This document shows positions 20,879 through 57,646 of a stretch of 64,000 nt of DNA, one piece after another. Origin of the DNA: Acidobacteriota bacterium. GTDB lineage: Bacteria; Acidobacteriota; UBA6911; RPQK01; JAJDTT01. The translations under genes were made by a program, and so were the position numbers. How positions within the stretch are numbered: position 1 is the first letter of the stretch; the number at the start of each line of letters is the position of its first letter. The stretch is taken from positions 29,816-93,815 of the forward strand of contig CBDCJH010000001.1 in assembly GCA_965217775.1 (NCBI GenBank), given 5' to 3'. The notes beneath the pieces are model-generated. The model saw only the letters and a list, made by a program, of their open reading frames with translations. It was not told the DNA's origin and ran no database searches.

Positions 20879-21889
20879 TCACGGTATCTTGCGAAACCAG
20901 GTTCCGGAGAGTCCCAGCTCGCCCAACAGAATCACGACGGCCAGGGCCAGCGGATAGGGGAACAGCTCTCCGTATTGAGTGTATTGGTTCACCTTGATCT
21001 CGCTCTTTTCCAATTCGTCGATCTCACGGTAGATCTCCTCCAGGCTCTCACGATCCGTGGCCCGAAAATATCGCCCGCCCGTGGTGTCGGCGGCTTGTCG
21101 GAGAGCCTCTTCGTCGATGTCGACCCGGATCCGGGTCTGGCGCCGGCCGAAGACGGGGTCGTCCACAGGATAGGGGGCCGCGCCCCGGGTTCCGGCTCCG
21201 ATGGAATAGATGCGGATTTCGAAGGCCTGAGCCATCTGGGCCGCGGTGGCGGGGTCGATCTCTCCAGCGTTGTTGCGGCCGTCGGTGAGCAGGATCAACA
21301 CCTTGGACTCGGCTTCGCTCTCCTTGAGCCGGCCGACGGCGGTGGCGATGCCCATGCCCAGGGCGGTCCCGTCGTCCAGCAGGCCCACCTTCAGCTCGTC
21401 CAGAAAATCCAGAAGGATCCCGTAGTCCAGGGTCAAGGGACACTGGACGAACCCGTGACTGGCGAAAACCACCAGCCCGATACGGTCGTTGGTCCGGCGG
21501 CGGATGAAGTCGGCAGCGACCTGCTTCGCCGCCTCGATCCGGTCCGGCTCGATGTCCTGCGCCAGCATGGAACTGGACAGATCCAATGCCAGCACGATGT
21601 CGATCCCTTCCGCCGTCACCTCCTCACGGGTGGCGCCACTCTGGGGCCGCGCCGCCGCGAGAACCAGAAGCCCCAGGGCGATCAACCGAAGGGCGAAAAG
21701 AAAATGGCGGGAACGGGCCGCCATGGGCTTGTAGGCCTTCTTGAGAGATCCCACGTGCGGAAACCGCAGACTGGAGTTCCGGCGGCCCGCCCGCCTCAGG
21801 GTCCAGACCAGGATCAGGGGAAGGATCAGCAGCAGGCTGAGAAACCAGGGATCCGCGAAACGGTACGACATGGTCAAATCTCGGGGCAA
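20879..21889 (-). CDS. batA: BatA-like VWA-domain membrane protein
   Basis: 336 aa in the track (TTG start). The ATG at 21871 (MSYRFADPWFLSLLL) is the more likely start. Motifs LALDLSSSM and ILLTDGRNN. Confidence 0.8.
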   Translation of the reverse strand: MPRDLTMSYRFADPWFLSLLLILPLILVWTLRRAGRRNSSLRFPHVGSLKKAYKPMAARSRHFLFALRLIALGLLVLAAARPQSGATREEVTAEGIDIVLALDLSSSMLAQDIEPDRIEAAKQVAADFIRRRTNDRIGLVVFASHGFVQCPLTLDYGILLDFLDELKVGLLDDGTALGMGIATAVGRLKESEAESKVLILLTDGRNNAGEIDPATAAQMAQAFEIRIYSIGAGTRGAAPYPVDDPVFGRRQTRIRVDIDEEALRQAADTTGGRYFRATDRESLEEIYREIDELEKSEIKVNQYTQYGELFPYPLALAVVILLGELGLSGTWFRKIP

Positions 21890-21938
21890 AGCGAAATCAG
21901 GTCGTCGATCCCCAATTGTCCGAATCGAGGTTCTCTAT

Positions 21939-22096
21939 CAGTCCGTGGTGAAAGTCCCGCGAGCACCGAGACCGTTCCTGCGCCCGCCGGACAAGGCGCG
22001 ATTCGGGTGCATACCGGGAGTATGTGCCCGAATCGCAACGCAGTCCGCCGGGATGCAGGGACGGTCGAATGCCGTGGCGACTTTTGCCACGGGCTG
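21939..22096 (-). mobile_element. 158-bp MITE, copy 1 (reverse orientation relative to copy 2)
   Basis: About 93% identical by hand alignment to the reverse complement of 56169-56326. Termini are CAGYCCGTGG...CCACGGRCTG. Flanked by a direct 4-bp duplication CTAT (21935-21938 and 22097-22100). Confidence 0.8.
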
Positions 22097-22202
22097 CTAT
22101 GGCCCCAGGGGTCCACTCTACCGGTTTCGGACCCGCCGGCGGTCAGCTTTGAACTCCCACTCGGTGGGAGAATCCGTGCGGCCGTGATCCTGCACACGAT
22201 CC

Positions 22203-22523
22203 TCATCCGAGAACCCACAGGAGGGCCGCAACTATCCCCACGATGCCGGCGGCTTGTATTGCCAGGGCTCGATAGATCCGAGATTCCAGATCGCGGATGG
22301 TCGATTCCAGGGCCTCGCTCGTGGGACGCGACGCAATAGCCTCCCGGATCTGAGCCAGGTCGTCGTGCAGGGTCGTCGTGGCCTCATCGAATGCTTGGCG
22401 CACAGCTGCCGCATCGATGCCGGACCCTGTGTCTTTGCCCATTCGCTTGTCAATGACTTTCGTAACGGCCGTGACAACAGCGTCGATCAGAGCCCCAAGC
22501 AAAATCGGGGGAACAAGAACCAT
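22203..22523 (-). CDS. small hypothetical protein with hydrophobic N- and C-termini
   Basis: 106 aa. A strong AGGAGG lies 5 nt upstream of the ATG. MVLVPPILLGALIDAVVTAV ... ALAIQAAGIVGIVAALLWVLG. No family recognised. Confidence 0.6.
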   Translation of the reverse strand: MVLVPPILLGALIDAVVTAVTKVIDKRMGKDTGSGIDAAAVRQAFDEATTTLHDDLAQIREAIASRPTSEALESTIRDLESRIYRALAIQAAGIVGIVAALLWVLG

Positions 22524-23530: not shown

Positions 23531-24408
23531 CGCCGCAGTCGCCGGCTCCGGGTCCGGAAGAACCGGATCAACAACTCCAGATAGCTCCGGTTGGAATCCA
23601 CCTCGATGCTGTCGACGCTGATGGAGTTGAGAAAGCTCCTGAGCTCCTCGTCCTCCCGGAGAACCTGGGCCTTGAAAGCCTCTCGAACCTCGGGGTCATT
23701 GGTGTTGAGGATCAGTTGCTCTCCCGTCTCGGCATCCTCGAACTCGACGAAACCCACTCGCGGAAGTTCCCGTTCCCTGGGGTCCCGGACCCGGATGGCC
23801 ACCACGTCATGCCTCCGGTTGGCGACCCGGAGCCCGCGCCGGAAACCGTCCGCGAGGAAGTCCGACACCAGGAACACGATGCTTCTTCGGCGGATCACCC
23901 GCATCAGGTACTCGAGGGCCAGACCGATGTCGGTGGCGTGATGCCGGGGCTGGAAATACAGCAACTCCCGCAGGACCCGGAGCACGTGGGAGCGGCCCTT
24001 GCGGGGGGGCACGAATTTCTCGATCCGGTCGGTGAAGATGATCAGGCCCACCTTGTCGTTGTTCTTGATGGCGGAAAACGCCAGCAGAGCGCAGATCTCG
24101 ACGGCGACCTCTCCCTTCATTCGCTCCCCGGACCCGAACTCTCCCGAGAGGCTGGCGTCGACCAGGAGCATCACCGTCAGGTCCCTCTCCTCGTCGAACA
24201 GCTTGACGTAGGGACGATCCATCCGGGCCGTCACGTTCCAGTCGATGGTCCGGACGTCATCCCCGATCTGGTACTCGCGGACCTCGGCAAAGCTCATGCC
24301 TCGTCCCTTGAACACTGAATGGTATTCGCCCGAAAAGACATTGTTGACCAGACCTCGAGTGGCGATCTCGAGACGGCGAACCTTGCGCAGGATCTCTCGT
24401 GGAATCAT
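23527..24408 (-). CDS. DUF58-domain protein (MoxR partner)
   Basis: 293 aa. GEYHSVFKGRGMSFAEVREYQIGDDVRTIDWNVTAR is the characteristic DUF58 motif. Confidence 0.88.
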   Translation of the reverse strand: MIPREILRKVRRLEIATRGLVNNVFSGEYHSVFKGRGMSFAEVREYQIGDDVRTIDWNVTARMDRPYVKLFDEERDLTVMLLVDASLSGEFGSGERMKGEVAVEICALLAFSAIKNNDKVGLIIFTDRIEKFVPPRKGRSHVLRVLRELLYFQPRHHATDIGLALEYLMRVIRRRSIVFLVSDFLADGFRRGLRVANRRHDVVAIRVRDPRERELPRVGFVEFEDAETGEQLILNTNDPEVREAFKAQVLREDEELRSFLNSISVDSIEVDSNRSYLELLIRFFRTRSRRLRR

Positions 24409-30952: not shown

Positions 30953-32224
30953 TCATGACCGTCCCTGGACGCTCGTGGGCGCGCCCGGTCTCCCCGTAGG
31001 GACTCCGGCTCCGGCTTGCGAGCGTACGGGCCACCCGGAACGCGATTTTGTTGTTCCGGTTCGCGGTGGTGTTCCTGTTGCGGTTCGCGGAGCGCAGGTT
31101 CCTAGGGTTGTTGTTCCAGGAGCCGCCGCGCAAAACGCGCCGGGGGGACGGTCAGGCCTCCGGACGGGGCCGAAACGCACCGCCCGGAAGATCGCTTGGC
31201 GCAAGCGCCAGGTGTTCGCATGCTCGGCATGCGCGATCCAGGCGCGCACGTGCCGAGTCATCTGTTCCAGGTCCACCGTGCCCGCGTGCCAGCGGTCGCG
31301 CAGCCCCCGCAGGCGATTGCGGAACCGGCGCACGTTCGCTTCCGGCAATCGGCGGTAACCGCCCGGAAGTAGGACCAGGCCCAGGAACGGAGTCGGTTGA
31401 GCAGTTTCCAGCACCACCGTCTTGCGTGGGTGCAGCCGCAGGCGCCGGCCCTTGAGATACGTCGCGATTCGATTCCGCCAGTCCTCGAGCCGCCCGCGGT
31501 CGTCGTGAAACAGCGCGAAGTCGTCCACGTACCTGAGATATCCCTTCGCCCGCAGCACTTCCTTGCAGAAGTGGTCGAGACCGTTCAGATAGAGATTGGC
31601 GAAGAACTGGCTCGTCAGGTTGCCGATGGGCAAACCTCGCCGGCGTTCGAACGGGGTGAAGAGATTGTCGCCGGGATAGTAGAGGTTCACCGGTTCCTGC
31701 GGGTTGGACCCCTCGATGAGGCGTTCCGCTAACGCCAGGGTGCGCCGGCAGGCGATCCGCCGCCGCAGGTCCGCCTTGAGGATCTCGTGGTCGATGGCCG
31801 GGAAGTAGCGGTAGACGTCACAACGCAGCACCCAACGGTGCCGGTCGCGAAATCGTTCGTAGCGCGCGATGGCCCGGTGGGTTCCCTTGCCCTTCCGGTT
31901 GGCGTAGCTGTCGTGGATGAAGCCGCGTTCGAAGATGGGTTCCACCACGCGGCAGAAGGCATGGTGGACGACCCGGTCCCGAAAGGGCGCCGCCGAGACC
32001 ATGCGGCGTTTGGGGTCCCGGATCTCGATCACGGTGTAGCGTCCGGGACGGTAGCGCCCGCTCCTCAGTTCCCGCTCCAGGCGCAGAACCTGAGGCTCCA
32101 GATTGGCCAGGAACGACGCCACGCCCGGCTTGGCCCGTTTGCCCTTACAGGCGATCCGGGCCGCCTCCAGCAGGGCCGAAAACGAGGCGATCCGGTCAAA
32201 GAGGTCACGCGCTTTCGCGGGCAT
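30953..32224 (-). CDS. DGR-type reverse transcriptase; the annotated ORF reads through TR1
   Basis: 423-aa ORF with RT motifs, including the DGR-typical LPIGNLTSQFFANLYLNGLD and catalytic RYVDDFALF. After about residue 350 the ORF is just the open frame across TR1. Confidence 0.9.
   Translation of the reverse strand: MPAKARDLFDRIASFSALLEAARIACKGKRAKPGVASFLANLEPQVLRLERELRSGRYRPGRYTVIEIRDPKRRMVSAAPFRDRVVHHAFCRVVEPIFERGFIHDSYANRKGKGTHRAIARYERFRDRHRWVLRCDVYRYFPAIDHEILKADLRRRIACRRTLALAERLIEGSNPQEPVNLYYPGDNLFTPFERRRGLPIGNLTSQFFANLYLNGLDHFCKEVLRAKGYLRYVDDFALFHDDRGRLEDWRNRIATYLKGRRLRLHPRKTVVLETAQPTPFLGLVLLPGGYRRLPEANVRRFRNRLRGLRDRWHAGTVDLEQMTRHVRAWIAHAEHANTWRLRQAIFRAVRFGPVRRPDRPPGAFCAAAPGTTTLGTCAPRTATGTPPRTGTTKSRSGWPVRSQAGAGVPTGRPGAPTSVQGRS
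31032..31143 (-). other. DGR template repeat TR1
   Basis: Adenine/AAC-rich on the minus strand. In the VR frame it reads RGGSWNNNPRNLRSANRNRNTTANRNNKIAFRVAR. Aligns to VR 32696-32823 with mismatches mostly at TR adenines. Confidence 0.85.
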
Positions 32225-32600
32225 GATGCGCTTTCCGCCAGCCGCCGACCAGACGGCCGGTCTCGTCGAGTTGTCGGGCCGCGTGTTCGTAACGGCGCGG
32301 GTCCAGGTAACGCAGCTCGCGGGCCAGACGGCATAGGCACCGGAGCTTCTCCAGACCCAGGTTGGCGGCGGCCAGGGCGGGACCGCGGTGCCGGGTGTAG
32401 GTCGCCTCGATCAGCCGCTCCAGAACGTCCAGAGCCGAGGTCTGGATCCGGTCCCCCAGCAGAAACTTCTGCCGGCGCGGAAAGCGCTCCACCGTCGGGA
32501 TCAACCAGGCGAGGAATCGATAGTGCGACTCCAATGCGGGGCCAGTTTCACGCGAACGGTCGCCACTCCGGACACGCCGCCGCTGGGATTCATTCCTCAA
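32205..32600 (-). CDS. avd: DGR accessory variability determinant (Avd, four-helix-bundle family)
   Basis: 131 aa with a TTG start; a later TTG is also possible. YRFLAWLIPTVERFPRRQKFLLGDRI...LRCLCRLARELRYL...GRLVGGWRK matches the Avd pattern. Overlaps the RT start by 20 nt. Confidence 0.8.
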   Translation of the reverse strand: MRNESQRRRVRSGDRSRETGPALESHYRFLAWLIPTVERFPRRQKFLLGDRIQTSALDVLERLIEATYTRHRGPALAAANLGLEKLRCLCRLARELRYLDPRRYEHAARQLDETGRLVGGWRKAHHARESA

Positions 32601-32618
32601 ATTTGCCGATCAACCTCA

Positions 32619-32645
32619 AGAAAAAACCAGGGCGTTGCCCCCTGG
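32619..32645 (-). terminator. stem-loop plus T6 downstream of VR (intrinsic terminator and/or DGR target-recognition hairpin)
   Basis: The minus strand reads CCAGGG-GGCAACG-CCCTGG followed by TTTTTT. It lies about 50 nt 3' of VR and just upstream of avd. Confidence 0.55.
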
Positions 32646-32695
32646 CCCCCCGCAGGAGATAAAGATTTAAGGATTCAAGGGGTAACGGTCCGGGG

Positions 32696-32823
32696 CACCC
32701 GGAACGCGATTCCGAGGTCACCGAATTCACATGAGCCGGTTCGCGGAGGCGGACCCGCTGCGGTACGCGGAGCGCAGGAGCCCGGGGAAATTGCTCCGGG
32801 AGCCGCCGCGCAAAACGCGCCGG
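32696..32823 (-). other. DGR variable repeat (VR) at the 3' end of the target gene
   Basis: Collinear with TR1. By hand count about 18 of 22 substitutions are at TR adenines. VR carries a 16-nt insertion relative to TR1, and a TGA sits where TR1 has AAA. Confidence 0.8.
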
Positions 32824-33944
32824 GAACATTTCCCGCTCTCCCACGCCGAGCCGTTTGTCGGCGCTCCTTGGTAATTCTCGTTCCAACAATCCTGCACCCA
32901 CTCATACACGTTCCCGTGCATGTCGTGCAGGCCCCAGCCGTTGGGACCGAACGATCCCACCGGCGCCGTCTGTGCCTTGTCCCACTTACTCCCGCAGCCA
33001 ACACAGTTGGCCCGGTTGCGACCGATCCCGTTCCCCCAACTGTAGACCGTCTCCGTCCCCGCCCGAGACGCACCCCATCCGGAAGCTCCCCCCGGGGATC
33101 ACCACCATCTCCGGCCGAATCGGGTCCGCCTGGCTGCAGTCGTAAGTGCTGCTGCGGTCATAGGTGACCGACCTCTCGTTTTCTCCTCCCGGATCAAGGG
33201 TCCAAGTCCCGTCCCGTTTGTCCTCCACATACGACCCTTGTTCTACGATCTGCCCGTCATCGTTGCGCCTCACCCAGCGGCCGTGTTTCTTGCCTTCGAC
33301 GTAGGAGATTTCCCATGTGTCGCCGTCCGCGTCTCGGCCGGTCAGTTGGCCGTGTCTTTTGCCGTCTACGTACGGCCTTTTCTCTATGGATCCGTCTGGC
33401 CACCGAGCAGTCCAAAGGCCCTGCATATTGCCTTCCACGAAGGGTCCTTCTGTCTTGTTCCCGGACAGGTCACCGTCTGCTCCGGCAAGAGATATTCGTC
33501 CCACACGTGGCATCCCGGCTGGTTGGCCAGTTCCTTCCAACATTCGGAACCCTTCGCTTTGCCTGAGCAGGTCTGGACGGCATTGAACGTGTCCGCTTCG
33601 GCGGCGTTCAACAATTCCAGGGCTTCGATGTAGTGGTCCCCGTCGCGTCCAGCCATCTCCAAATAGCGCGTCACCATCTGGACCGCCCGGGCGGGACGGC
33701 CCGTCCGCTACGCCACTTGGGCACTTCGAAAATAGAATTCTTCCGGAAGCTTTAGACCCTGTTCCGTCTCTAACGTACTCATCTTGTCGAGCGCGGTTTG
33801 AGCACCAGCGAAGTCTTGCCGCTCGATCGCTTGCCGCGCGGAAAGTAGGTAGCGGTCCGCTTGGATCTCGGGTGGCAGCTGGGCGACCGTCGCGGGAGCG
33901 CCCAAGAATACGAAAACGACAACGCTCCGGATTCTTTTTTCCAT
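32727..33944 (-). pseudogene. DGR target: signal peptide + YwqK/MORN-like repeats + FGE-sulfatase (C-type lectin fold) domain; apparently disrupted
   Basis: The coding signal is split over track ORFs 33708-33944, 33384-33677, 32986-34017 (the latter's 3' half) and 32727-32960. There is an in-frame TAG at 33710-33708, a frame change near 33478, and a frame change plus missing domain core near 33055. Confidence 0.7.
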
Positions 33945-34080
33945 TGATTCTCTCCCGGTCTTCAGTGCATGCAGGTGAGGTGTGAATGCAGCCTATTCTA
34001 AAGGACCATCGGGCCATCTATCTTTTTGCTCCGCGGCAACCATTCTCCTGCTCCACTGATCGCTCTTCCCACCCTTCGCG

Positions 34081-35418
34081 TCACTTCACTAGGGCACCAA
34101 AAAGGTCCTCCAGATTTCGTGAGACGCCAAAGATGAATCGTAAGTCGTCAATCCCTTCGCCGTTGTTCAAATCAAATCCGAAGTGGATTCCTTTCAGATA
34201 GAGGCGAGACTCGATGTAGGTTCTCCATGGACGTTTCCGGGTAAAGTCCTTTTCCTCAATCATAGAAATAAGAGGGGGACCACGCCTCTTAGTTGGCATG
34301 GTGCGGCACTTTTGTATGTCTCTCGCACACTTCATTGCATTGGGTGTCAGCGGCGTTGCGATCTCATAGTTTTCAAACTTGCCGTAGGACACGTCCACGT
34401 AGAAGACCGGGGACCACGTGTTTCTCTTAGCCTTGTCCATGAGCGAGAATCGGCCTCCGAACGTGTAAGCAGAATAAATGTCATCTACATCCCAAATTCG
34501 AAGCGCCTTCTCACTACCCGTTATGCTTTGAAGGACGTACCTCCCAATAAAGCCACCCGACCACTGGTAGCGATCGTTTGATCCCAACGCTGCGACTGGG
34601 AAGTAGCGACCGACAACACCACCAAGGTGAATCGTCGCAGCTTTCTGTGACTGGATAAACGCACTCGAATCGAAGCCACCGCTGGCGTCCCCGGTGCTTG
34701 TCTTCACGCCAACCGAAGAAAGGCGAATGTTGACAATGGGATCAACGACGCATTCTCTTTCTGGGTCCACTATGGCTGGCATCAGGTCAAGCGCCATGTA
34801 CAGGTTCGCCTTAGTGAACGGTTCATTCGACCCCGCTTGAGCAGGGGCTTGAAGGTTCAACCTGTGCGTAGAGTTCGCCAGAACCACTCCAGCCGTGGCG
34901 TTCGCCCGCAGTAGACTTAGTACTGTTTTGTCGTCGGAATCACCTGCTGTGCCTTTGGCGTGTTCCGACCATGGGCCGCCGCCGCCTTCATTGTAAGCGC
35001 GAACCCGGTAGTGTTTCGTCGTACCGGCAAGGAGGTCGGTGTGGTGATACTTTGGTTTCTTGGGGTCAATGTCGTCGCATAGGATGATCCAGCCGGTGTT
35101 GCCGTCGTCGGAGACTTGGAGCGTGTAACCGGTGATCGTGGCATCTGCAGCCGGTTTGTTCCACGTCACCTCGATGCTACTGATTCCGGAGACCGCTTTC
35201 AGTCCACAGACTTTTTCTGGCTTTGGTGGGGAGGTCGTCTCCCCCGTGCCTGTCCCGAACCCGAGGACAGAGGCGTACATGAGGACGATGAGGAAGGCAA
35301 GAATATGACTGAGACGGGAGATAAATGAGAGCTTCTTACTCCTCCGCCACCCTCGCGGACCATTTGGCAGATTGGGCGGGATGTCGGGAGTGAGCCATCG
35401 GGCGGGTTCTTCTGACAC
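34081..35418 (-). CDS. membrane-anchored protein with a fibronectin type III domain and an unrecognised ~280-aa C-terminal domain
   Basis: 445 aa with TM ILAFLIVLMYASVLGF. FN3-like segment SIEVTWNKPAADATITGYTLQVSDDGNTGW...HYRVRAYNEGGGGPWS. Visibly lower GC than its flanks. Confidence 0.65.
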   Translation of the reverse strand: MSEEPARWLTPDIPPNLPNGPRGWRRSKKLSFISRLSHILAFLIVLMYASVLGFGTGTGETTSPPKPEKVCGLKAVSGISSIEVTWNKPAADATITGYTLQVSDDGNTGWIILCDDIDPKKPKYHHTDLLAGTTKHYRVRAYNEGGGGPWSEHAKGTAGDSDDKTVLSLLRANATAGVVLANSTHRLNLQAPAQAGSNEPFTKANLYMALDLMPAIVDPERECVVDPIVNIRLSSVGVKTSTGDASGGFDSSAFIQSQKAATIHLGGVVGRYFPVAALGSNDRYQWSGGFIGRYVLQSITGSEKALRIWDVDDIYSAYTFGGRFSLMDKAKRNTWSPVFYVDVSYGKFENYEIATPLTPNAMKCARDIQKCRTMPTKRRGPPLISMIEEKDFTRKRPWRTYIESRLYLKGIHFGFDLNNGEGIDDLRFIFGVSRNLEDLFGALVK

Positions 35419-36159
35419 TCTAACCTCCTTGAGGAAACCGTACCATTAGTTACCGTATCTATGACTTCGATCATGCCGAGTGAGTTGCTGAATTCAAGAT
35501 AAAGTGCCTTACAGGAAATAATCCCACATATCGTCATGCTCTAAGTTGGCCGCCACTTCTGTGCATATCTCAAGTGAACTTTCCCTGTAACTAAGGACGC
35601 AACTTTTTTTAAACGAGAATGCGGAATGTTACAACTTAGTACGTGCCTTTTTAGTCCCCATTTCTCATCACCGAAACGGAAGTCGGTGCGTTTAACGGCA
35701 TTTCAATGGTTTTCTTATTCATATGAATTCAAGTGCCGTCTTGCCGACTCGAATGTGGCGACAAAAGCCAAGATCGGGCGATGTCCAGAGGCATTTGACG
35801 TCCCACCTGCGTTCATGAGCCAGATTTCTCAAAGAGCCGACTCCAGCGCAGAGTCCGTCCGGCGCGGCGGACTCCCAAGGTGGCGTCTTCCCATTCGCTG
35901 TTTCCCGTCAACAGCGAACCTGGAGGGATTGCCCTCGCGCCAGAACCGATCACAAACACGAATTGCTAGCCCTGGTTTCACGAGCCGAAGCGGCTCCTGG
36001 CGGCTCACAAGTCTATCACCTGATGTTCAAATACCTATGACGTTTGGGAAACGAGAACCGGACAGTTTCCCCGAAAAAATTGAGGAGAGGCGCGATAGCC
36101 GTAGGTCCGAGGGAGTCGCTGTTGGCGGCGGCCTTCGCCGCTATGCTGGCGCCTCGATC

Positions 36160-36262
36160 TCCCTTCCTGCTTGCCGTGTAGCGGATCGTTCGTGGCGTCC
36201 ACGTTCAGGATCATGTACGCGGGCGGCGCTTGGTGCGCTTCCAGGAACACCTCCACCGGTCG
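36160..36262 (-). pseudogene. fragment resembling the N-terminal catalytic region of a DDE transposase (IS1380/IS4-superfamily-like)
   Basis: The minus-strand translation EVFLEAHQAPPAYMILNVDATNDPLHGKQEG resembles the LDxDxTxxxxHGxQEG block of such transposases. The similarity stops abruptly. Bounded by motif copies. Confidence 0.35.
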
Positions 36263-36501
36263 GAACCAGAGAGAAGGGGACAGTCACGTTTTCTGCATGC
36301 GATTCGCCAGGACCGAAAAGGGGACAGTCACATTCTCTGCTGTCGCTACTGGGGAGCTCCAGACTCGACTTCCACCGAGCCGCTCTTCGCCTGGAGACCC
36401 AAGAGGAGGATCGAAGCCCTATTGGCCGTTTCGACCTTGACCGAAGAGGAGAAGGAGACAGTCTATTTGTCGCGCGCCGTTGTCCTTGGTACGGTAGCGT
36501 A

Positions 36502-36945
36502 TCAGGTTAGTCCAGACGTAAACGATTGGGTGACCAGGCCCTTGGCCGCGTCTATCCCACCCTCCTTGATCAGGCGAGCAAGAATCTTTCCAAAAGTCTC
36601 GTCGGGTTGCTGGACGCCATCGGGAATGGAGTTGAGTAGCTTCAGCGCCTTCTCGGTCAACATGCAGCCGTTGACCTGTAGTCCTCCACGCTGGAGAGCC
36701 CGAACGTACTCATTCTCTACGAGCCAATCGATCGTCGAAAAGGCGATCCGCATCTGCTTCTGCTTCTCCTCGTCCACATCCTCTGAGTCGTCCTTGCGAG
36801 AGTAAAAGATGTCACCGTATCCTTTGGGGCGAGTGTCACCGCTGATTTCCCACGCCATAAGATCTTGTCTGACCGGAAAGTTCTCATAGAGGCGGCCCAA
36901 AATGATGGCGACGTATTCGTTGAACAGGTCGATGTTCTGCGTCAT
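36502..36945 (-). CDS. hypothetical protein
   Basis: 147-aa ORF with plausible composition (MTQNIDLFNEYVAIILGRLYENFP...). No family recognised. Lies between two motif copies. Confidence 0.5.
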   Translation of the reverse strand: MTQNIDLFNEYVAIILGRLYENFPVRQDLMAWEISGDTRPKGYGDIFYSRKDDSEDVDEEKQKQMRIAFSTIDWLVENEYVRALQRGGLQVNGCMLTEKALKLLNSIPDGVQQPDETFGKILARLIKEGGIDAAKGLVTQSFTSGLT

Positions 36946-37038
36946 GCGTCCTCCCCGTAATGGCTGAGTTGGAGCCGAAACTCCACTTTACGAGGTGTTC
37001 CCACTCGGAGAGAAGGGGACAGTCACGTTTTCTGCATG

Positions 37039-37275
37039 CGCGGCGAGGGCCAAGGCAGTGGCGCCCTCACCGTTCTGGGCGTCGATCCGGGCCCTGCGGT
37101 CCAGCAGCAATTCCGCGACTTCAGCATGACCGTTCGAGGCGGCTTGCATCAGGGGGGTCCGACCATCGTCGTCCCGAACATCCGGGTCCGCCCCCCGGTC
37201 CAGCAGCAGCTTGGCGATCTCCGGGAATCCCTGATACGCCGCGAAGGCGAGAGCCGTCTGGCCTCCCGCGCCTCG
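37039..37275 (-). pseudogene. ankyrin-repeat gene fragment, paralogous to 38767-39003
   Basis: 237 nt, collinear and about 90% identical by hand count to an internal part of the 627-aa ankyrin gene. Encodes GGQTALAFAAYQGFPEIAKLLLDRGADPDVRDDDGRTPLMQAASNGHAEVAELLLDR. Bounded on both sides by motif copies. Confidence 0.85.
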
Positions 37276-37541
37276 GGTTCCCACGGGACGCGAGAAGGGG
37301 ACAGTCTATTTTTCCCGCCCTCGGTTCCAACTGCGCCCACCACTGGACCCTTGCCTGCCAGGTCGATTATCTGGTCACGGACCCTCTACGCGAGAGGGGA
37401 CCAGATTAGGGACCGCTTGGAGAGGTTGGCGAGGGTGCCTTTCTTGACGTGGCTCTTAGGGCGGTAGGACTTGCTCAGGAGGGGCCGGAGAGAAGGGGGC
37501 AGTCACGTTTTCCGCCCCTCGTTCGATGTCAGGAGGATGGC

Positions 37542-37558
37542 GGGGGGGGGGGGGGGGG
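37542..37558 (+). repeat. homopolymeric G17 tract
   Basis: 17 consecutive G read directly from the sequence. Intergenic within the mosaic region. Confidence 0.9.
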
Positions 37559-37568
37559 CGCAGACCGG

Positions 37569-37790
37569 CTACTCCTGCTCCTGGAGCAATCTGGCCAGCG
37601 CAAGAAGGGGACAATCTATTTTTCCCATGATGACGTGTGAAACGTACCGTCTTCCCGCCAATACGCCAGCCCATGCGCCGACGGCCGCAGAGCCTATGGC
37701 GAGAAGGGCCTCATTCTCTTTCTCGTAGAATGCCAACAGCACGGAACCCAGCACAGATAGAACAATGGCCGTGCCCAGCGATATTGCCAC
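37569..37790 (-). CDS. small two-TM hypothetical ORF whose 3' end runs into a motif copy and an ankyrin 3'-end fragment
   Basis: 73 aa with a GTG start. MAISLGTAIVLSVLGSVLLAFY...LLAIGSAAVGAWAGVLAG. The last ~20 codons are encoded by motif copy 37602-37626 plus the LLQEQE-stop fragment. Confidence 0.35.
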   Translation of the reverse strand: MAISLGTAIVLSVLGSVLLAFYEKENEALLAIGSAAVGAWAGVLAGRRYVSHVIMGKIDCPLLALARLLQEQE

Positions 37791-37888
37791 GACTCGATAA
37801 AAGAACTGGTACGATTCATAGGTGGGGGGTGGAACCTATCGCAATTGCAGAATTCCCACTATCGCCCCAATCCTGGGGAGCGGGGGTT

Positions 37889-38110
37889 TCAGCCACCTCT
37901 CAGCCCCATAATGACAAGACGCTCCATCGAACCGTCCTTCTTGCGTCTGTACAATTCTCCACCGTCTTCGACCAACCTGGTCAGATCGTCCATCACCGAC
38001 AATGCGCTACTCACAGTTGATGCTTTGCTTCGCGAGTCCAATTTTTGCGTCAGCCTGTTGGTGATTTCGATATCGCGCTCGGTCAGATTCATGGTGACTT
38101 TTCGTAACAC
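37889..38110 (-). CDS. small ribbon-helix-helix-like hypothetical protein
   Basis: 73 aa. GTG start with AGGAGG 5 nt upstream. VTMNLTERDIEITNRLTQKLDSRSKASTVSSALSV fits a beta-alpha-alpha RHH pattern by eye. TTGACT-18 nt-TATATT lies upstream. Confidence 0.45.
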   Translation of the reverse strand: MLRKVTMNLTERDIEITNRLTQKLDSRSKASTVSSALSVMDDLTRLVEDGGELYRRKKDGSMERLVIMGLRGG

Positions 38111-38381
38111 GTGTGCCTCCTATGTGGTTGCAGATTCCAACCATGCTTCGTTCTGGATGCGCATTGTGCCGCCAAGTCGAGGGACGTCGAGAGGCCAACC
38201 CTGGATCCATCCACCTTTTCAGTCGATGCCAAAGCCCATTCAGCAGCATCTTCAACACTTAACGAGTACTAGAACACATACAGACAATGTATGGCGAATA
38301 TACAGATAAAGTATGGTCATAGTCAAGGTCAAGGGGGGTCGGAACAGGGGACAGTTCCCTTTTCACGAGGTGTGGGTCCGT

Positions 38382-38531
38382 TTTTGTTGTTCCGGTTCCC
38401 GGTGGTGTTCCTGTTGCGGTTCGCGGAGCGCAGGTTCCTGGGGTTGTTGTTCCAGGAGCCGCCGCGAAAAACGCGCTGGGGGGACGGTCAGGCCTCTGGA
38501 CGGGGCCGAAGTGCACCTCCCGGAAGATCGC
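38382..38531 (-). other. orphan second copy of the RT 3' end plus template repeat (TR2)
   Basis: About 150 nt collinear with 31046-31196 at roughly 93-95% identity. Encodes ...IFREVHFGPVQRPDRPP in the RT frame and RGGSWNNNPRNLRSANRNRNTTGNRNNK in the VR frame. There is no RT body upstream. Flanked by motif copies. Confidence 0.8.
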
Positions 38532-38619
38532 CTCGAGGGGACAGTCACGTTTTCCGCAGAGAGAAGGGAACCGCGCAGAGAGAAGGGAACCGGATTCGCG
38601 CGTGCGGCCCAGACGGCTT

Positions 38620-40503
38620 CTACTCCTGTTCCTGGAGTAATCTCGCCGTGACCTTTCGACCTTCGGCCTGAGCCAGCATGAGGGGATTGCTTCCCTGGTG
38701 GTTCCGGATACGCACGTCAGCGCCGCGGCTCAGCAACAGCCGGGCCAGGTCCGTCTGACCTCGGGACGCGGCGAGGGCCAAGGCAGTGGCGCCCTCTCCG
38801 TCCTGGGCATCGATCCGGGCCCCCCGGTCCAGTAGCAGTTCCGCCACTTCAGCATGACCGTTCCAGGCGGCTTGCATCAGTGGGGTCCGGCCGGAATCGT
38901 CTTGGACATCCGGGTCCGCCCCCCGGTCCAGCAGCAGCTTGGCGATCTCCGGAAATCCCTGATACGCCGCGAAGGTGAGGGCCGTCTGGCCCCCCGCGCC
39001 TCGCGCTCCGACACGAGCGCCGCGTTGCAACAGTTTCCGCACCGACTCGATTCGCCCCCTGTAGGCCGCCATGCCCAGAAAAGACTGGCCGCGGGGGGCG
39101 AGCGAATTCACGTCCACACCCGCCGCCAACAGGGCGTCGACGATGGGACCGCGGTCCTGGCTCAGCGCCAGCCCCAGGGCCGTCCAGCCCTCGTTGCTGC
39201 GAGAGTCGAGCCGGGCGCCGCCGTCGATGAGCCGCCGCGCCACTTCGGCGTGACCATGGAGGGCGGCGTAGATGAGCGGCGTCCTCCCCTCCCGGTCCGG
39301 CCGGTCCGGATCGGTCCCCCGGGCCAGCAGGACCTTGACCGTCGCCTCGTTTCCTTCCAACGCGGCGTGCACCAGAAGGGTTCGACCCGCCTCGTCGGGG
39401 GTATCGACCCGTTCCCCGGCCGGGAGCAGCGCTTCGATGACCTTCGTGTGGTCGTACCAGACGGCCAGGTCCAGAGCCGTCTGGCCCCGATTGGACTTGA
39501 TCTGCGGATCCGCGCCCGCCGCCAGAAGCGCCTTGACCGCATCCGCCTTCCCCTGGGAGGCGGCCTGCGTGAGAGGTGTCCGGCCTTGACTGTCGCGGCT
39601 GTCCACCACGGCCCCCGCCCGGATCAGAGCCTCGACGATGGGTGCAAAGCCATTGTAGGCCGCCGCCGCCAGTGGTCCGTTGCCCTCCTTGTCCCGAAAG
39701 CCGGTGGCGGCGCCGTGGGCCAGCAGGAATCGGGCCGCTTCGGTCTTCCCTCCCGACGCCGCATGCATCAGGAGCGGGATGCCGTTGACGTCCACCTCAT
39801 CGACGTCGGCTCCGTAGCGCACCAGGAGAGCAGCCGTTCGTCCGTGGCCCTCGAACAGGGCCAAGGCGAGAGCCGTCCAGTTGTCGCGGCTCCGAGTCCC
39901 GACCTTGGATCCTCCTTCGAGCAGAGCCTCGACCACAGGCAGGTCGCCCTGGGACGATGCCCGCATCAGGACGGTCCAGCCCGTCTTGTCTCGCGCGTCG
40001 GGTCCGGCCCCGGCCGCCAACAGTGTCCGGACCACCGCCACGCTCCCTCCCAGTACTCCCCAGACCAAGGGCGTATGTCCGCTGGCGTCGGTGGAGCGTA
40101 TGTCCGCTCCCACCTCCAGCAAGGCGCCAACGACAGCCACATGTCCGGATCCGGAACCGATCATCAGGGCGGTGGCGCCGTCCCGGGTTCTGGCTTCCAG
40201 TTCCGACCCCCGGGACAGGAGCAGGCGGACGGTCTGTTCATTCCCGCCCATGGCGGCGTACATGAGAGGATTCAATCCGTCCGGATCCCGAACCAACACG
40301 CTGGCGCCCCGGTCCAACAAGGCCGCGACCTGATCGGTGCGGCCCTCCACGGCGGCCCCGATCAGGGCCGCATTGAGCTCCTGATCCTGACCGGCGGCGG
40401 AGACGTTGGACGACAGAAGACCCAGAACCAACCACCGGGCGAGGAAGTCCCGGCCCCGCGGTTTCGGCCTTGGCCGCACTTGATATCCGGTGGCTCGGAA
40501 CAT
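38620..40503 (-). CDS. large secreted ankyrin-repeat protein
   Basis: 627 aa with an N-terminal signal/anchor (WLVLGLLSSNVSAAG), followed by about 18 ANK repeats. Confidence 0.9.
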   Translation of the reverse strand: MFRATGYQVRPRPKPRGRDFLARWLVLGLLSSNVSAAGQDQELNAALIGAAVEGRTDQVAALLDRGASVLVRDPDGLNPLMYAAMGGNEQTVRLLLSRGSELEARTRDGATALMIGSGSGHVAVVGALLEVGADIRSTDASGHTPLVWGVLGGSVAVVRTLLAAGAGPDARDKTGWTVLMRASSQGDLPVVEALLEGGSKVGTRSRDNWTALALALFEGHGRTAALLVRYGADVDEVDVNGIPLLMHAASGGKTEAARFLLAHGAATGFRDKEGNGPLAAAAYNGFAPIVEALIRAGAVVDSRDSQGRTPLTQAASQGKADAVKALLAAGADPQIKSNRGQTALDLAVWYDHTKVIEALLPAGERVDTPDEAGRTLLVHAALEGNEATVKVLLARGTDPDRPDREGRTPLIYAALHGHAEVARRLIDGGARLDSRSNEGWTALGLALSQDRGPIVDALLAAGVDVNSLAPRGQSFLGMAAYRGRIESVRKLLQRGARVGARGAGGQTALTFAAYQGFPEIAKLLLDRGADPDVQDDSGRTPLMQAAWNGHAEVAELLLDRGARIDAQDGEGATALALAASRGQTDLARLLLSRGADVRIRNHQGSNPLMLAQAEGRKVTARLLQEQE

Positions 40504-44247: not shown

Positions 44248-44328
44248 GTAGGGGCACCCCTTGTGTGGGTGCCCGCTTTCGCCTGCACGGATCGGCCCGG
44301 GGAGGGCGACCGCAAGGGTTGCCCCTAC
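44248..44328 (+). repeat. REP-like double-hairpin intergenic element (full copy)
   Basis: GTAGGGGCACCC-CTTGTGT-GGGTGCCCG ... GGGCGACC-GCAA-GGGTTGCCCCTAC. About 85% identical to 47984-48063. Confidence 0.8.
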
Positions 44329-47983: not shown

Positions 47984-48063
47984 GTAGGGTCACCCCTTGT
48001 GGGTGCCCGCTTTCGCCCTTCACTGATCGGCCCGGGGAAGTCGACCACAAGGGTCGCCCCTAC
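47984..48063 (+). repeat. REP-like double-hairpin intergenic element (full copy)
   Basis: GTAGGGTCACCCCTTGTGGGTGCCCGCTTTCGCCC...GGCCCGGGGAAGTCGACCACAAGGGTCGCCCCTAC. Same family as 44248-44328. Confidence 0.8.
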
Positions 48064-54531: not shown

Positions 54532-54535
<4 letters not shown>

Positions 54536-55920
54536 GACGGAGGTTGTCCCTCACCCTTGATTCGCCTGAGTCCGAACTTCCGCATCCGGTAGATCAGAGT
54601 GTTTCTGGTGATCCCCAGGTACCGCGCCGTACGAACCTGATTCCAGCGGTTCCGCTCCAGCGCCGCCAGCAGGATGTCACGCTCCAGCTCTTGCAGAGAA
54701 AAGCCTTTCTCCGGGAGCCGGAACATCCGGCCGTACGAATCCGCGGGAGGGCGGCGGATCTCGATGGGCAGGTCCTCGCGCTCGACGCTTCCGGTCCGGT
54801 TGAAGAGCACCAGCCTCTCGACGACGTTTTCCAGCTCCCGGACATTGCCGGGCCAACGGTACGACTGCAGCAGCGAAACCCCCTCTTCCCCGAACCGCAC
54901 CTCCTTTCCCAGTTTCCGGGACGACTCACTCTGGAAATGGTGGATCAGAAGCGGGACGTCTTCCCGGCGCTCCCGCAAGGGGGGGATCCTCAAGGGCGCG
55001 ACCGAGAGCCGATAGAACAGATCTTGCCGGAATCGGCCCTCGGCCATGTTCCGGACCAGGTCCTGATTCGTGGCCGCCAGGATCCGGACGTCCACGGGAG
55101 AGGGTACGGGGTCTCCGATCACATCCATCTCCTTGTGCTGCAATACCCGGAGCAGCTTCACCTGCATATCCAGCGGAAGCTCCGCCACCTCATCCAGGAA
55201 CAGAGTCCCGGTGTCCGCCACGGCGAACTTTCCATGCCTGTCGGCGACGGCTCCGGTGAATGCGCCCTTCCGGTGACCGAAGAGTTCGGACTCCATCAGG
55301 TCCCGCGGAATGGCGCCGCAGTTGACCACCACGAAGGGACGATCCCGGCGCGGACCGTTGAAATGGATGGCCCGCGCCAGGAGTTCCTTCCCGGTCCCCG
55401 TCTCTCCCTGAATCAGAACCGTCGTCCCCACCGCCGCCAGTTGGCGCGCCATGTCCAGGACCTCCCGGAACTCCTTGGACGATCCCACGATCCCCTCGAA
55501 CTCGAACCTGCGCTGCACCTCCCGGGAGAGTCTCCGGTTCTCCCGAATCAACTGCGTCATCTGCAGGGCTTTCCGGATGGAGTGGTGGATCTCCTCCCGC
55601 TCGAAGGGCTTGGTCAGAAAATCGGAGGCCCCGCCCTTGACGGCGTCGACGGCCCCCTCGATGGAGCCGTGGGCGGTCAGGACGATCACGGGCAGGTCCG
55701 GGTCCAGCCGGCGGATCCGTTCCAGCAACTGGAGGCCGTCCATCCCCGGCATGCGAAGGTCGGTGACCACCAGGTCCACGTCGGACTCGCGAACCCGGTC
55801 CAAGGCGCGGTCACCGGAAGAGACGCAGCAAGTGTCGTACCCGAACTGCTCGACCTGATAACCCAGGACCCGCAGGAAATTCCGGTCGTCGTCGACCAAC
55901 AGGATCCGTTCGGATTTCAT
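54532..55920 (-). CDS. sigma54-dependent response regulator (NtrC family)
   Basis: 462 aa with a receiver domain (LLVDDD...DLVVTDLRMPGMDG). AAA+ domain with Walker A GETGTGKE and the GAFTGA loop (KGAFTGAV). C-terminal HTH. Confidence 0.92.
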
Positions 55921-56140: not shown

Positions 56141-57646
56141 GTGACGATGAAGAGATCGACACCCTTAACAGCCCGTGGTGAAAGTCGCCACGGCATTCGA
56201 CCGTCCCTGCATCCCGGCGAACTGCGTTGCGATCGGCTCACATACTCCCGGTATGCTCCCTCATCGCGCCTTGTCCGGCGGGCGCAGGAACGGTCTCGGT
56301 GCTCGCGGGACTCTCACCACGGACTGTTAATCCTGACGGCCGTATTGCTGGGAGTCGGGCTCCTCCTGCCGGGGGTCCCCGGAGTCTACGGAGCGCAGCC
56401 GGATGCGGAGCAAGCCTTCCACATCCCGGACCCGCTGCTGGGTGAGTACATTCGCACCGCCCTCGACTCCAACCCCTCCATCCTGACCGAGCTGGCCCGT
56501 TACCGTGCGGCTCTCCAGAAGGTGCCCCAGCAGACCGCTCTTCCCGATCCCATGGTGAGCTTCGGCCGCTACCTTCGCAGCGTAGAAACCCGGGAAGGTC
56601 CTCAACTGAGCACGCTCACACTCAGCCAGCGGTTCCCCTGGTTCGGCAAGCTGGACCTGAAGGGCAAGATCGCCTTCAAACGGGCGGCGGCCCGATACCG
56701 TCTCTACCGCGCCCGGGAAAGGGAAGTCGCCGCCGACGTGAAGCGAAACTTCTACGACGTGGCCTTTCTGGACCGGGCCCTGGAAGTCGTACAGGAGGAG
56801 AAATCTCTGCTGGCTCACTACGAGAATCTGGCTCAGGCTCGTTACGCTTCGGGCAAGGGACACCAGCAGGAGGTGATCCGGATCCAGGCCGAGATCAGCC
56901 GGACCATGAGCCGGCTGGAACTGCTGGGACAACAACGCCAATCGGCGGCGGCACGACTGAACAGCCTGCTGGACCAGCCTCCGGAAAAGCCCGTGCCTCG
57001 ACTCCTGCTTCCCGCTGCGGCGAAGGTCAGTATCAACTTGGATGAATTGTACGAGCTGGGGAAGCTTCACCGGCAGGAACTCAAGGGGACCATGGCGCGG
57101 ATCGAAGCTTCGGAGCAGGGCGTGGAGCTGGCCAAGAAGAGTTTCTGGCCGGATTTCACACTGACTGCGGGGACCGTCAACGTGGGCGGTCTTCCGCCGC
57201 AGGACCTGTTGCCGGCGACGCGTCCCGGCGGCGGAAAGAATGCCTACAACCTCTCGGTGGGCATCAACATTCCCCTCCAAAGGCACAAATACCGCGCGGA
57301 GGTGATGGAGGCCGCGGAAAACCTGATCGCCGAACGCAGCACGTATCGAGATCTGCGAAACCGGATTCAACTCTCCATCCGGGACCTGGCGGTTCGCATC
57401 CAGACCCTGTGGAGACAGATGGACCTGTTTGAACGGGTCCTGATTCCCCAGACCCGGGAGGCGCTCCGTTCCGCCGAGTCCGGATACCGGAACGGGCAGT
57501 TGGGGGCCCTGGAGCTCTTGGACAGCGAACGGTCCCTGTTGGAAACGCGCGTGCTCCAGGCTCGCCACCGGGCCGACTATTTGCAGGCCCTGGCGGAAAT
57601 GGAGCGGGCCGTCGGAGCACGTTACCCCGGATCGGGAGAAGACTGA
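56141..57646 (+). CDS. TolC-family outer-membrane efflux protein (CusC/CzcC-like) carrying an in-frame MITE insertion near the 5' end
   Basis: 501-aa track ORF. From about residue 65 it is a typical OMF (paired coiled repeats). Residues ~10-63 are encoded by MITE copy 2. The functional start is uncertain. Confidence 0.8.
   Translation: MTMKRSTPLTARGESRHGIRPSLHPGELRCDRLTYSRYAPSSRLVRRAQERSRCSRDSHHGLLILTAVLLGVGLLLPGVPGVYGAQPDAEQAFHIPDPLLGEYIRTALDSNPSILTELARYRAALQKVPQQTALPDPMVSFGRYLRSVETREGPQLSTLTLSQRFPWFGKLDLKGKIAFKRAAARYRLYRAREREVAADVKRNFYDVAFLDRALEVVQEEKSLLAHYENLAQARYASGKGHQQEVIRIQAEISRTMSRLELLGQQRQSAAARLNSLLDQPPEKPVPRLLLPAAAKVSINLDELYELGKLHRQELKGTMARIEASEQGVELAKKSFWPDFTLTAGTVNVGGLPPQDLLPATRPGGGKNAYNLSVGINIPLQRHKYRAEVMEAAENLIAERSTYRDLRNRIQLSIRDLAVRIQTLWRQMDLFERVLIPQTREALRSAESGYRNGQLGALELLDSERSLLETRVLQARHRADYLQALAEMERAVGARYPGSGED
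56169..56326 (+). mobile_element. 158-bp MITE, copy 2
   Basis: Terminal inverted repeats CAGCCCGTGGTGAAAGTC ... GACTCTCACCACGGACTG. Flanked by direct TTAA repeats (56165-56168 and 56327-56330). About 93% identical to copy 1. Confidence 0.8.

Follow-up and report, generated by a model that had tools for sequence, protein, structure and literature searches.

Does a 158-bp sequence that occurs twice in a 64,000-nt stretch of an Acidobacteriota genome (the whole stretch analysed, hereafter the window) owe its presence to transposition, or is it a conserved structured element that is kept in place for its function? The first-pass annotation, made from the letters of the window, had favored transposition over a conserved regulatory RNA. 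Copies at unrelated sites, most of them with a target-site duplication of their own, and empty sites in relatives bear out that choice, and we consider it highly probable that the two segments belong to a family of non-autonomous DNA transposons (MITEs) served in trans by a DDE transposase of the IS1182/IS5 type. The element is a standard bacterial MITE in kind, of a well-known sort and with no new mechanism. What is new here is how large the family is and which hosts it occupies, its YTAR target motif, the empty site of copy B, a candidate transposase clade, and an in-frame insertion into a signal peptide.

Anatomy and folding of the two copies

Copy A (21939..22096, minus strand) is intergenic in a bat (BatA/VWA) operon, and copy B (56169..56326, plus strand) lies within the 5′ coding region of an OEP/CusC-like gene, in its signal peptide, where it is in frame and stop-free. 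Two 158-bp segments with 11 differences and CAG/CTG ends had been described, and alignment agreed: the copies are 93.0% identical (11 mismatches over 158 bp), start with CAGCCCGTGG and finish with CCACGGACTG. Their likeness ends a few bases past each terminus (a gap-free extension reached 167 nt at 92%), their flanks are unrelated, and together they form the sole long inverted repeat of the window (repeat finder, I1). On its left, copy B carries the 18-nt terminal inverted repeat CAGCCCGTGGTGAAAGTC (56169..56186, plus strand), and the autonomous insertion sequences described below have an identical left end; the right repeat, given as its reverse complement, is CAGTCCGTGGTGAGAGTC (56309..56326, minus strand; window sequence and A/B alignment). 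The different 4-bp direct repeats reported around the two copies are present in the sequence. Copy A is flanked by ATAG on the minus strand (left, 22097..22100; right, 21935..21938; window sequence), and copy B by TTAA on the plus strand (left, 56165..56168, where orthologues have CCAA or CCAT and no element; right, 56327..56330, from the window sequence and orthologue comparison). Copy A is 98-99% identical to copies from other genomes, and its ATAG duplication recurs at another copy (L010).

Each copy is predicted to fold as a single full-length hairpin, as the first-pass annotation had proposed; its estimate that the symmetry reaches only ∼55 nt inward was too short, as the inverted symmetry spans the entire element, with arms of ∼77 nt. 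RNA folding gave one hairpin per copy, at −97 and −81 kcal/mol on the strand read in that annotation (hereafter the reader strand) and at −117 and −103 kcal/mol on the opposite strand. Relative to dinucleotide-shuffled sequences, the z-scores lie between −5.4 and −12.3. Nothing in Rfam reached the gathering score for the element, the best hits being chance-level matches (E = 0.19-0.31).

Other repeats in the window

Two further sets of repeats were observed in the window. A second repeat family, unrelated to the 158-bp element, occupies 44248-44328 and 47984-48063 and also occurs near 23986, 24499, 25671 and 51107. Its units are small GC-rich hairpins with GTAGGGG heads (e.g., GTAGGGGCACCCCTTGTGTGGGTGCCC), two of them arranged as inverted doublets ∼65 nt apart. 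The sequence CAAGGGTCGCCCCTAC matches the window 8 times with ≤3 mismatches against 0.9 matches expected, and by its sequence the GTAGGGG-headed family looks REP/REPIN-like. Separately, the 18-mer GGGGACAGTCACGTTTTC is found 7 times, always on one strand, within 36276-38554 (plus strand; 0.04 expected), inside a repeat-rich region (31043-39408) and among direct repeats of 89, 153 and 246 nt (D1, D3, D5, D6); the stretch 36276-38554 has the appearance of clustered paralogous units that share an upstream element.

Family size, target-site duplications and hosts

Further copies at unrelated sites, which the first-pass annotation had anticipated, are numerous. One genome per bacterial species was scanned with a degenerate 27-mer that fits each of the four known ends, which gave at least 80 loci. 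The genomes concerned number at least 15, three of them Gammaproteobacteria MAGs and more than 12 of them Acidobacteriota MAGs. Acidobacteriota MAGs make up the majority of the matches listed (OZ253580.1, OZ241897.1, CATOST01, JAPOYZ01 [labelled Aminicenantes], JAIVJN01 and others), and the gammaproteobacterial hosts are OY761822.1 and two Candidatus Rariloculaceae genomes. Neither viral contigs nor plasmids yielded a match to the element, and no description of the 158-bp sequence family was found in the literature searched. Among the matches listed, BLAST identified 66 full-length copies of 156-170 bp (mode, 158), with at least 24 full-length copies in OZ253580.1; all copies have CAGYCCGTGG...CCACGGRCTG termini and arms that are alike over ∼77 nt.

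The 4-bp duplications hold up at these other copies as well. Among the matches listed, perfect duplications flank 41 of the 66 copies, and the flanks of 13 more differ by one base. With a chance of p = 1/256 per copy for a match between 4-bp flanks, and with the match holding at this many further copies, the observation made on the two copies of the window is far beyond chance. Eighteen different tetranucleotides are duplicated among the 66 copies listed, most often CTAG (11), TTAA (5) and TCAA (4), and the consensus is YTAR (Y in 35/41, T in 34/41, A in 35/41 and R in 33/41). Six copies that are 100% identical over 158 bp occupy six sites in three species-level genomes, with a perfect duplication at each, which points to recent movement.

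A gammaproteobacterial subfamily of 156-157 bp, ∼80% identical to the acidobacterial consensus, comprises L023, L029, L074, L076 (OY761822.1), L055 and L064; its duplications are perfect in 6/6 copies (five CTAG, one CTGG). Because this subfamily is present in Gammaproteobacteria MAGs, Candidatus Rariloculaceae included, the element family crosses phyla. Deletion derivatives also occur, including one 57-bp form that is explained by recombination between internal and terminal CGGACTG repeats. At L090 (Ga0315338_1000632) we observed a 47-bp mini-element, CAGCCCGTGGTGAAAGTCCCGTGGGCAGGGACTCTTGCCACGAGCTG, with CTCG on either side, which seems to be little beyond two termini. Several short-read contigs end within the element.

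Some copies interrupt coding sequence, and others coincide with stop codons, lie between convergent genes or occupy 5′ regions; among the matches listed most are intergenic or at gene ends. Two young copies lie in frame and open within other genes: one at L042:6189-6346 within a sulfatase domain (Pfam Sulfatase at aa 25-303, insertion near aa 149) and one at L006:6085-6242 within the DDE_Tnp_1 transposase of a different insertion sequence.

The copy-B locus and its empty site

Copy B interrupts a TolC/CusC-family outer-membrane efflux gene of a cusCBA-like operon (56147..57646, plus strand). CusB- and CusA-like genes follow, and a sigma-54 response regulator (54532-55920, minus strand; Pfam scan) is divergent from the outer-membrane gene. 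The copy and one duplication together make 162 nt, or 54 codons, inserted after codon 7, and the frame from the ATG at 56147 crosses copy B stop-free (MKRSTPL, 54 residues, then ILTAVLLGVGLLLPGVPGVYGA|QPD). The outer-membrane protein was rebuilt without the insert and used as the homologue query in the search for an empty site. Orthologues of 445-447 aa, with 83-93% identity and the entire query covered, have the N termini MKRSTPPILTAVLL... or MKRSTPPFLTAALL..., i.e., MKRSTPP(I/F)LTA.... At L126 and L128, whose OEP proteins are 93% and 88% identical, the site reads ACRCCC-CCAWTCCT-GACGG without interruption, compared to ACACCC-TTAA(158 bp)TTAATCCT-GACGG in the window. Judged by this alignment, L126 and L128 are a clean empty site, copy B having evidently entered TTAA and duplicated it.

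Empty sites in relatives, which the reading as a transposon called for, were thus found at copy B and also at L059, which is without the copy that the orthologous L082 carries. Other copies are common to orthologous sites (L053/L073 and L054/L080), and some insertions are therefore old. A related strain (L002, ENA ERZ25072670; identical response regulator) carries a 100-nt remnant of the element at the copy-B site (L002:3173-3272), without both termini and without a duplication. With the remnant, the locus is 92 nt longer than the empty site and the original ATG is out of frame, on a contig with a coverage of only 8x, where small indels are uncertain; the gene call runs instead from an upstream ATG and gives 459 aa.

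As a likely side effect of the insertion, the CusC-like protein would carry 54 mostly basic extra residues between the n-region and the h-region of its signal peptide, and this insert probably impairs or alters export. The locus is a concrete case of a MITE inside the signal peptide of a metal-efflux outer-membrane gene, and it illustrates how the element produces false or lengthened gene calls: the outer-membrane gene of the window is called at 499 aa, 54 residues of which are element-encoded.

The copy-A locus in the bat operon

The bat-type operon lies on the minus strand and consists of DUF58, a BatD-like gene and then BatA/VWA genes (Pfam scan). Copy A is located 67 nt upstream of the batA ATG (21871) and has the same direction as the operon, with batA (BatA_N + VWA; 20879..21871, minus strand; Pfam scan and homologues) directly downstream. 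Neither intrinsic terminator nor promoter motifs were found at copy A. If co-transcribed, the element would give the mRNA of the bat operon a hairpin with a folding energy of about −80 to −117 kcal/mol. A 106-aa ORF (22203-22523, minus strand) lies between copy A and the BatD-like gene; it has a strong GAGGAGG ribosome-binding site, hydrophobic N and C termini and no Pfam match, and it is absent from the relatives L130 and L131. In these relatives (BatA 95% identical) the element is absent and only 9 nt separate the upstream gene from batA, versus ∼660 nt in the window, made up of the MITE and the extra 106-aa ORF. The entire spacer (∼750 nt) differs, the junction is not alignable, and L130/L131 offer no clean empty site for copy A.

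Candidate transposases and autonomous relatives

No transposase with matching ends had been noticed in the window, and a tblastn search with the candidate transposase described here likewise found no family member in the window or in 82 genome loci; a search of the same sequences for paired termini found no longer element with the same ends. Autonomous elements with the same termini do exist in other metagenomes. A metagenome scan with the 18-nt terminus and a next base that excludes ordinary MITE arms gave 43 loci, whose left flanks are most often CTAG (13), TTAG (10) and CTAA (6). Six complete insertion sequences of 1.5-2.0 kb have termini of 14-18 nt in common with the MITE (CAGCCCGTGG(T/C)(G/A)AAAGTC-type), and each encodes one ∼465-aa transposase with DUF772 and DDE_Tnp_1 domains. 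Five are flanked by perfect duplications (L083, 1507 bp, TTAG/TTAG; L107, 1985 bp, CTAG/CTAG; L113, 1476 bp, CTAG/CTAG; L115, 1530 bp, CTAG/CTAG; L125, 1511 bp, CTAA/CTAA), and the flanks of the sixth show a one-base mismatch (L094, 1968 bp, CTAG/ATAG). The likeness of most matching insertion sequences to the MITE comprises the first 14-18 nt only, with divergence after about 18-34 nt; L111 agrees at its left end with copy B in 29/35 positions and with a MITE variant in 31/35. These insertion sequences come from other metagenomes, mostly soil to judge by contig names, and not from the present genome or the MITE-bearing genomes. In the commonest soil variant (25/43 loci, ∼1.97-1.99 kb; L107:78-2062, L094:371-2338), we observed a RibD_C (dihydrofolate-reductase-like) passenger gene antisense to the transposase.

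The transposase matched Pfam DUF772 (E = 4e-18) and DDE_Tnp_1 (E = 4e-7) or DDE_Tnp_1_6. Its best NCBIfam model was IS1182 (187 bits; cut-off, 270), followed by IS5_4 (93 bits; cut-off, 140); it falls below both cut-offs and is therefore a divergent relative, assigned to neither IS1182 nor IS5. The earlier guess of an IS5-like parent was essentially right, given these domains and this order of NCBIfam models, and YTAR is the published duplication motif of IS5 (PMC10359306). Within the IS1182 family, ISPse1 is 1653 bp long, with 16-bp inverted repeats and a 4-bp duplication (PMC3281130). The candidate parents resemble such elements in length (1.5-2.0 kb), in their single ∼465-aa ORF, in inverted repeats of 14-18 bp and in 4-bp duplications, but their transposase, at the IS1182 score given above, is a divergent relative rather than a certified member of the family. 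Homologues of the transposase are very numerous, with at least 8000 scored candidates at E ≤ 1e-40, mostly on short contigs; the best 120 of these at least 8000 homologues were all soil-type, on short contigs and without a link to MITE-bearing chromosomes.

Because the transposase was found neither in the window nor in the 82 genome loci, we infer, rather than observe, the acting enzyme in these Acidobacteriota. An IS1182/IS5-like class of transposase would be what moves these copies, presumably from an active source in these genomes. Made elsewhere in the cell, such a DDE transposase would bind both ∼18-nt termini, CAGYCCGTGG(Y)(R)AAAGTC, and then excise the element (cut and paste). Insertion into YTAR with a 4-bp staggered cut would follow, and repair would leave the 4-bp duplication. 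The enzymology in this scheme is carried over from established DDE insertion sequences, and the anatomy is that of the copies themselves. The element is short, well inside the limit of about 300-500 bp usual for MITEs, and transposase-free, has terminal inverted repeats and variable 4-bp duplications, occurs at many loci with empty sites, and has its ends in common with autonomous insertion sequences, as a MITE does; its copy number, its target motif and the identical copies at different sites are direct observations too.

Alternative explanations

One alternative is a conserved structured RNA, either a cis-regulatory hairpin or a small RNA gene that is kept for its function and was never inserted. 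In its favor, the fold is highly stable and significant, one strand folds better in 66/66 copies (by ∼14 kcal/mol on average), and compensatory changes between subfamilies preserve the pairing. Over 60 pairs, 84% of cells are Watson-Crick across subfamilies, and 16 pairs show two-sided changes, versus 3-11 in slid controls; for example, TCCC/GGAA in the main acidobacterial form becomes ACGA/TCGT in the gammaproteobacterial form. This conservation suggests that pairing of the arms matters, for transposition or persistence, though arm-to-arm correction within the palindrome could give an equal pattern of two-sided changes. It is also a point against a plain MITE account: a deletion derivative made of two ends needs no full-length palindrome, and a constraint beyond transposase binding may act. 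G:U strand asymmetry was considered as evidence of RNA function and rejected. Compared arm against arm, G:U-type mismatches number 6 versus 4, and the difference in energy between strands is inherited from the common ancestor of the copies; a larger asymmetry in the covariation count is an artefact of a structure derived from one strand. The copies, moreover, sit at unrelated, heterogeneous sites, with site-specific duplications and with empty sites in orthologues, and Rfam holds no match. Their orientation relative to neighboring genes is unbiased, with 12 same versus 10 opposite in ORFs and 8 versus 7 between co-directional genes (genes were called by a GC3-based caller with ORFs taken stop to stop, so that “in ORF” near 5′ ends mostly means upstream regions). 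A conserved RNA is thus a very improbable explanation of the family. Still less credible is a palindrome of the REP/REPIN type that owes its spread to a RAYT (IS200/IS605-like tyrosine) transposase. The element shares with REPINs a long palindromic, intergenic form at high copy number, and a separate GTAG-headed REP-like family is present in the same window. However, REPINs make no target-site duplications, whereas most copies of the 158-bp family have them, and its ends are CAG...CTG inverted repeats in common with DDE-transposase insertion sequences, not GTAG-headed units.

The remaining alternatives accept the MITE and add to it. One holds that the element has been further shaped for, or co-opted into, life within genes, in the manner of Rickettsia palindromic elements; element plus duplication make 162 nt, or 54 codons, which would let insertions persist as in-frame peptide inserts. 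In its favor, the reader strand of the consensus is stop-free in all three frames (P of about 0.02 against shuffles), 43/66 copies are fully open on that strand (25 stops versus 213 on the other), and in-frame open insertions occur in the CusC-like gene of the window, in the sulfatase domain (L042) and in the DDE transposase (L006), in-frame MITE fusions being already known (PMC10969869). The copies are related, however, so that the stop-free strand counts in effect as a single observation. Length also ranges over 156-170 bp, and in the gammaproteobacterial subfamily the sum 157 + 4 is not divisible by three. As members of the very young group with 100% identity, the L042 and L006 copies are uninformative on tolerance, the copy-B remnant in L002 is out of frame with the original ATG, and most copies are intergenic or at gene ends. 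We regard co-option as quite unlikely. A broader reading takes the element beyond a passive MITE, with horizontal spread in a shared, probably marine and host-associated community and selected tolerance in genes and operons, whether as a peptide insert or as an expression-modulating hairpin. It was considered because the compensatory hairpin in two phyla, the stop-free strand, the 54-codon form and the identical copies across species-level genomes fit together, and it too appears unlikely. The account that we prefer for the family is that of a MITE moved in trans.

Implications and comparison with known systems

Genome catalogues gain one family, together with its target motif and a probable clade for its transposase. 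The family disrupts short-read assemblies of these uncultured Acidobacteriota, and it serves as a marker of DNA recently exchanged, both from one species-level genome to another and across the Acidobacteriota and the Gammaproteobacteria.

Prokaryotic MITEs derived from the IS5/IS1182 superfamily share with the 158-bp element a small, non-coding and multi-copy form, termini that exactly match the inverted repeats of transposase-bearing insertion sequences, and 4-bp duplications of YTAR (PMC10359306; PMC3281130). The present family differs from known MITEs of this derivation in being new to the literature searched, in its hosts (uncultured Acidobacteriota and some Gammaproteobacteria) and in having a parent that, in those hosts, is only deduced. 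ERIC and YPAL, MITEs of enterobacteria, are whole-length imperfect palindromes of ∼130-170 bp that form one long RNA hairpin if co-transcribed and are found between genes in operons; elements of this type insert at TA with different duplications. The 158-bp element is likewise a full-length palindrome with a single hairpin and intergenic copies in operons, but it has no sequence relation to them, and insertion at TA contrasts with the 4-bp YTAR duplications found here. ERIC has been counted among intragenic MITEs, and Rickettsia palindromic elements are ∼150-bp palindromes that lie in frame in protein-coding genes (PMC10969869). The 158-bp element also occurs in frame, in the CusC-like signal peptide and in the sulfatase. 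Rickettsia palindromic elements, however, are mainly intragenic, whereas the 158-bp family is found mostly between genes or at gene ends, with clear duplications and a candidate transposase family.
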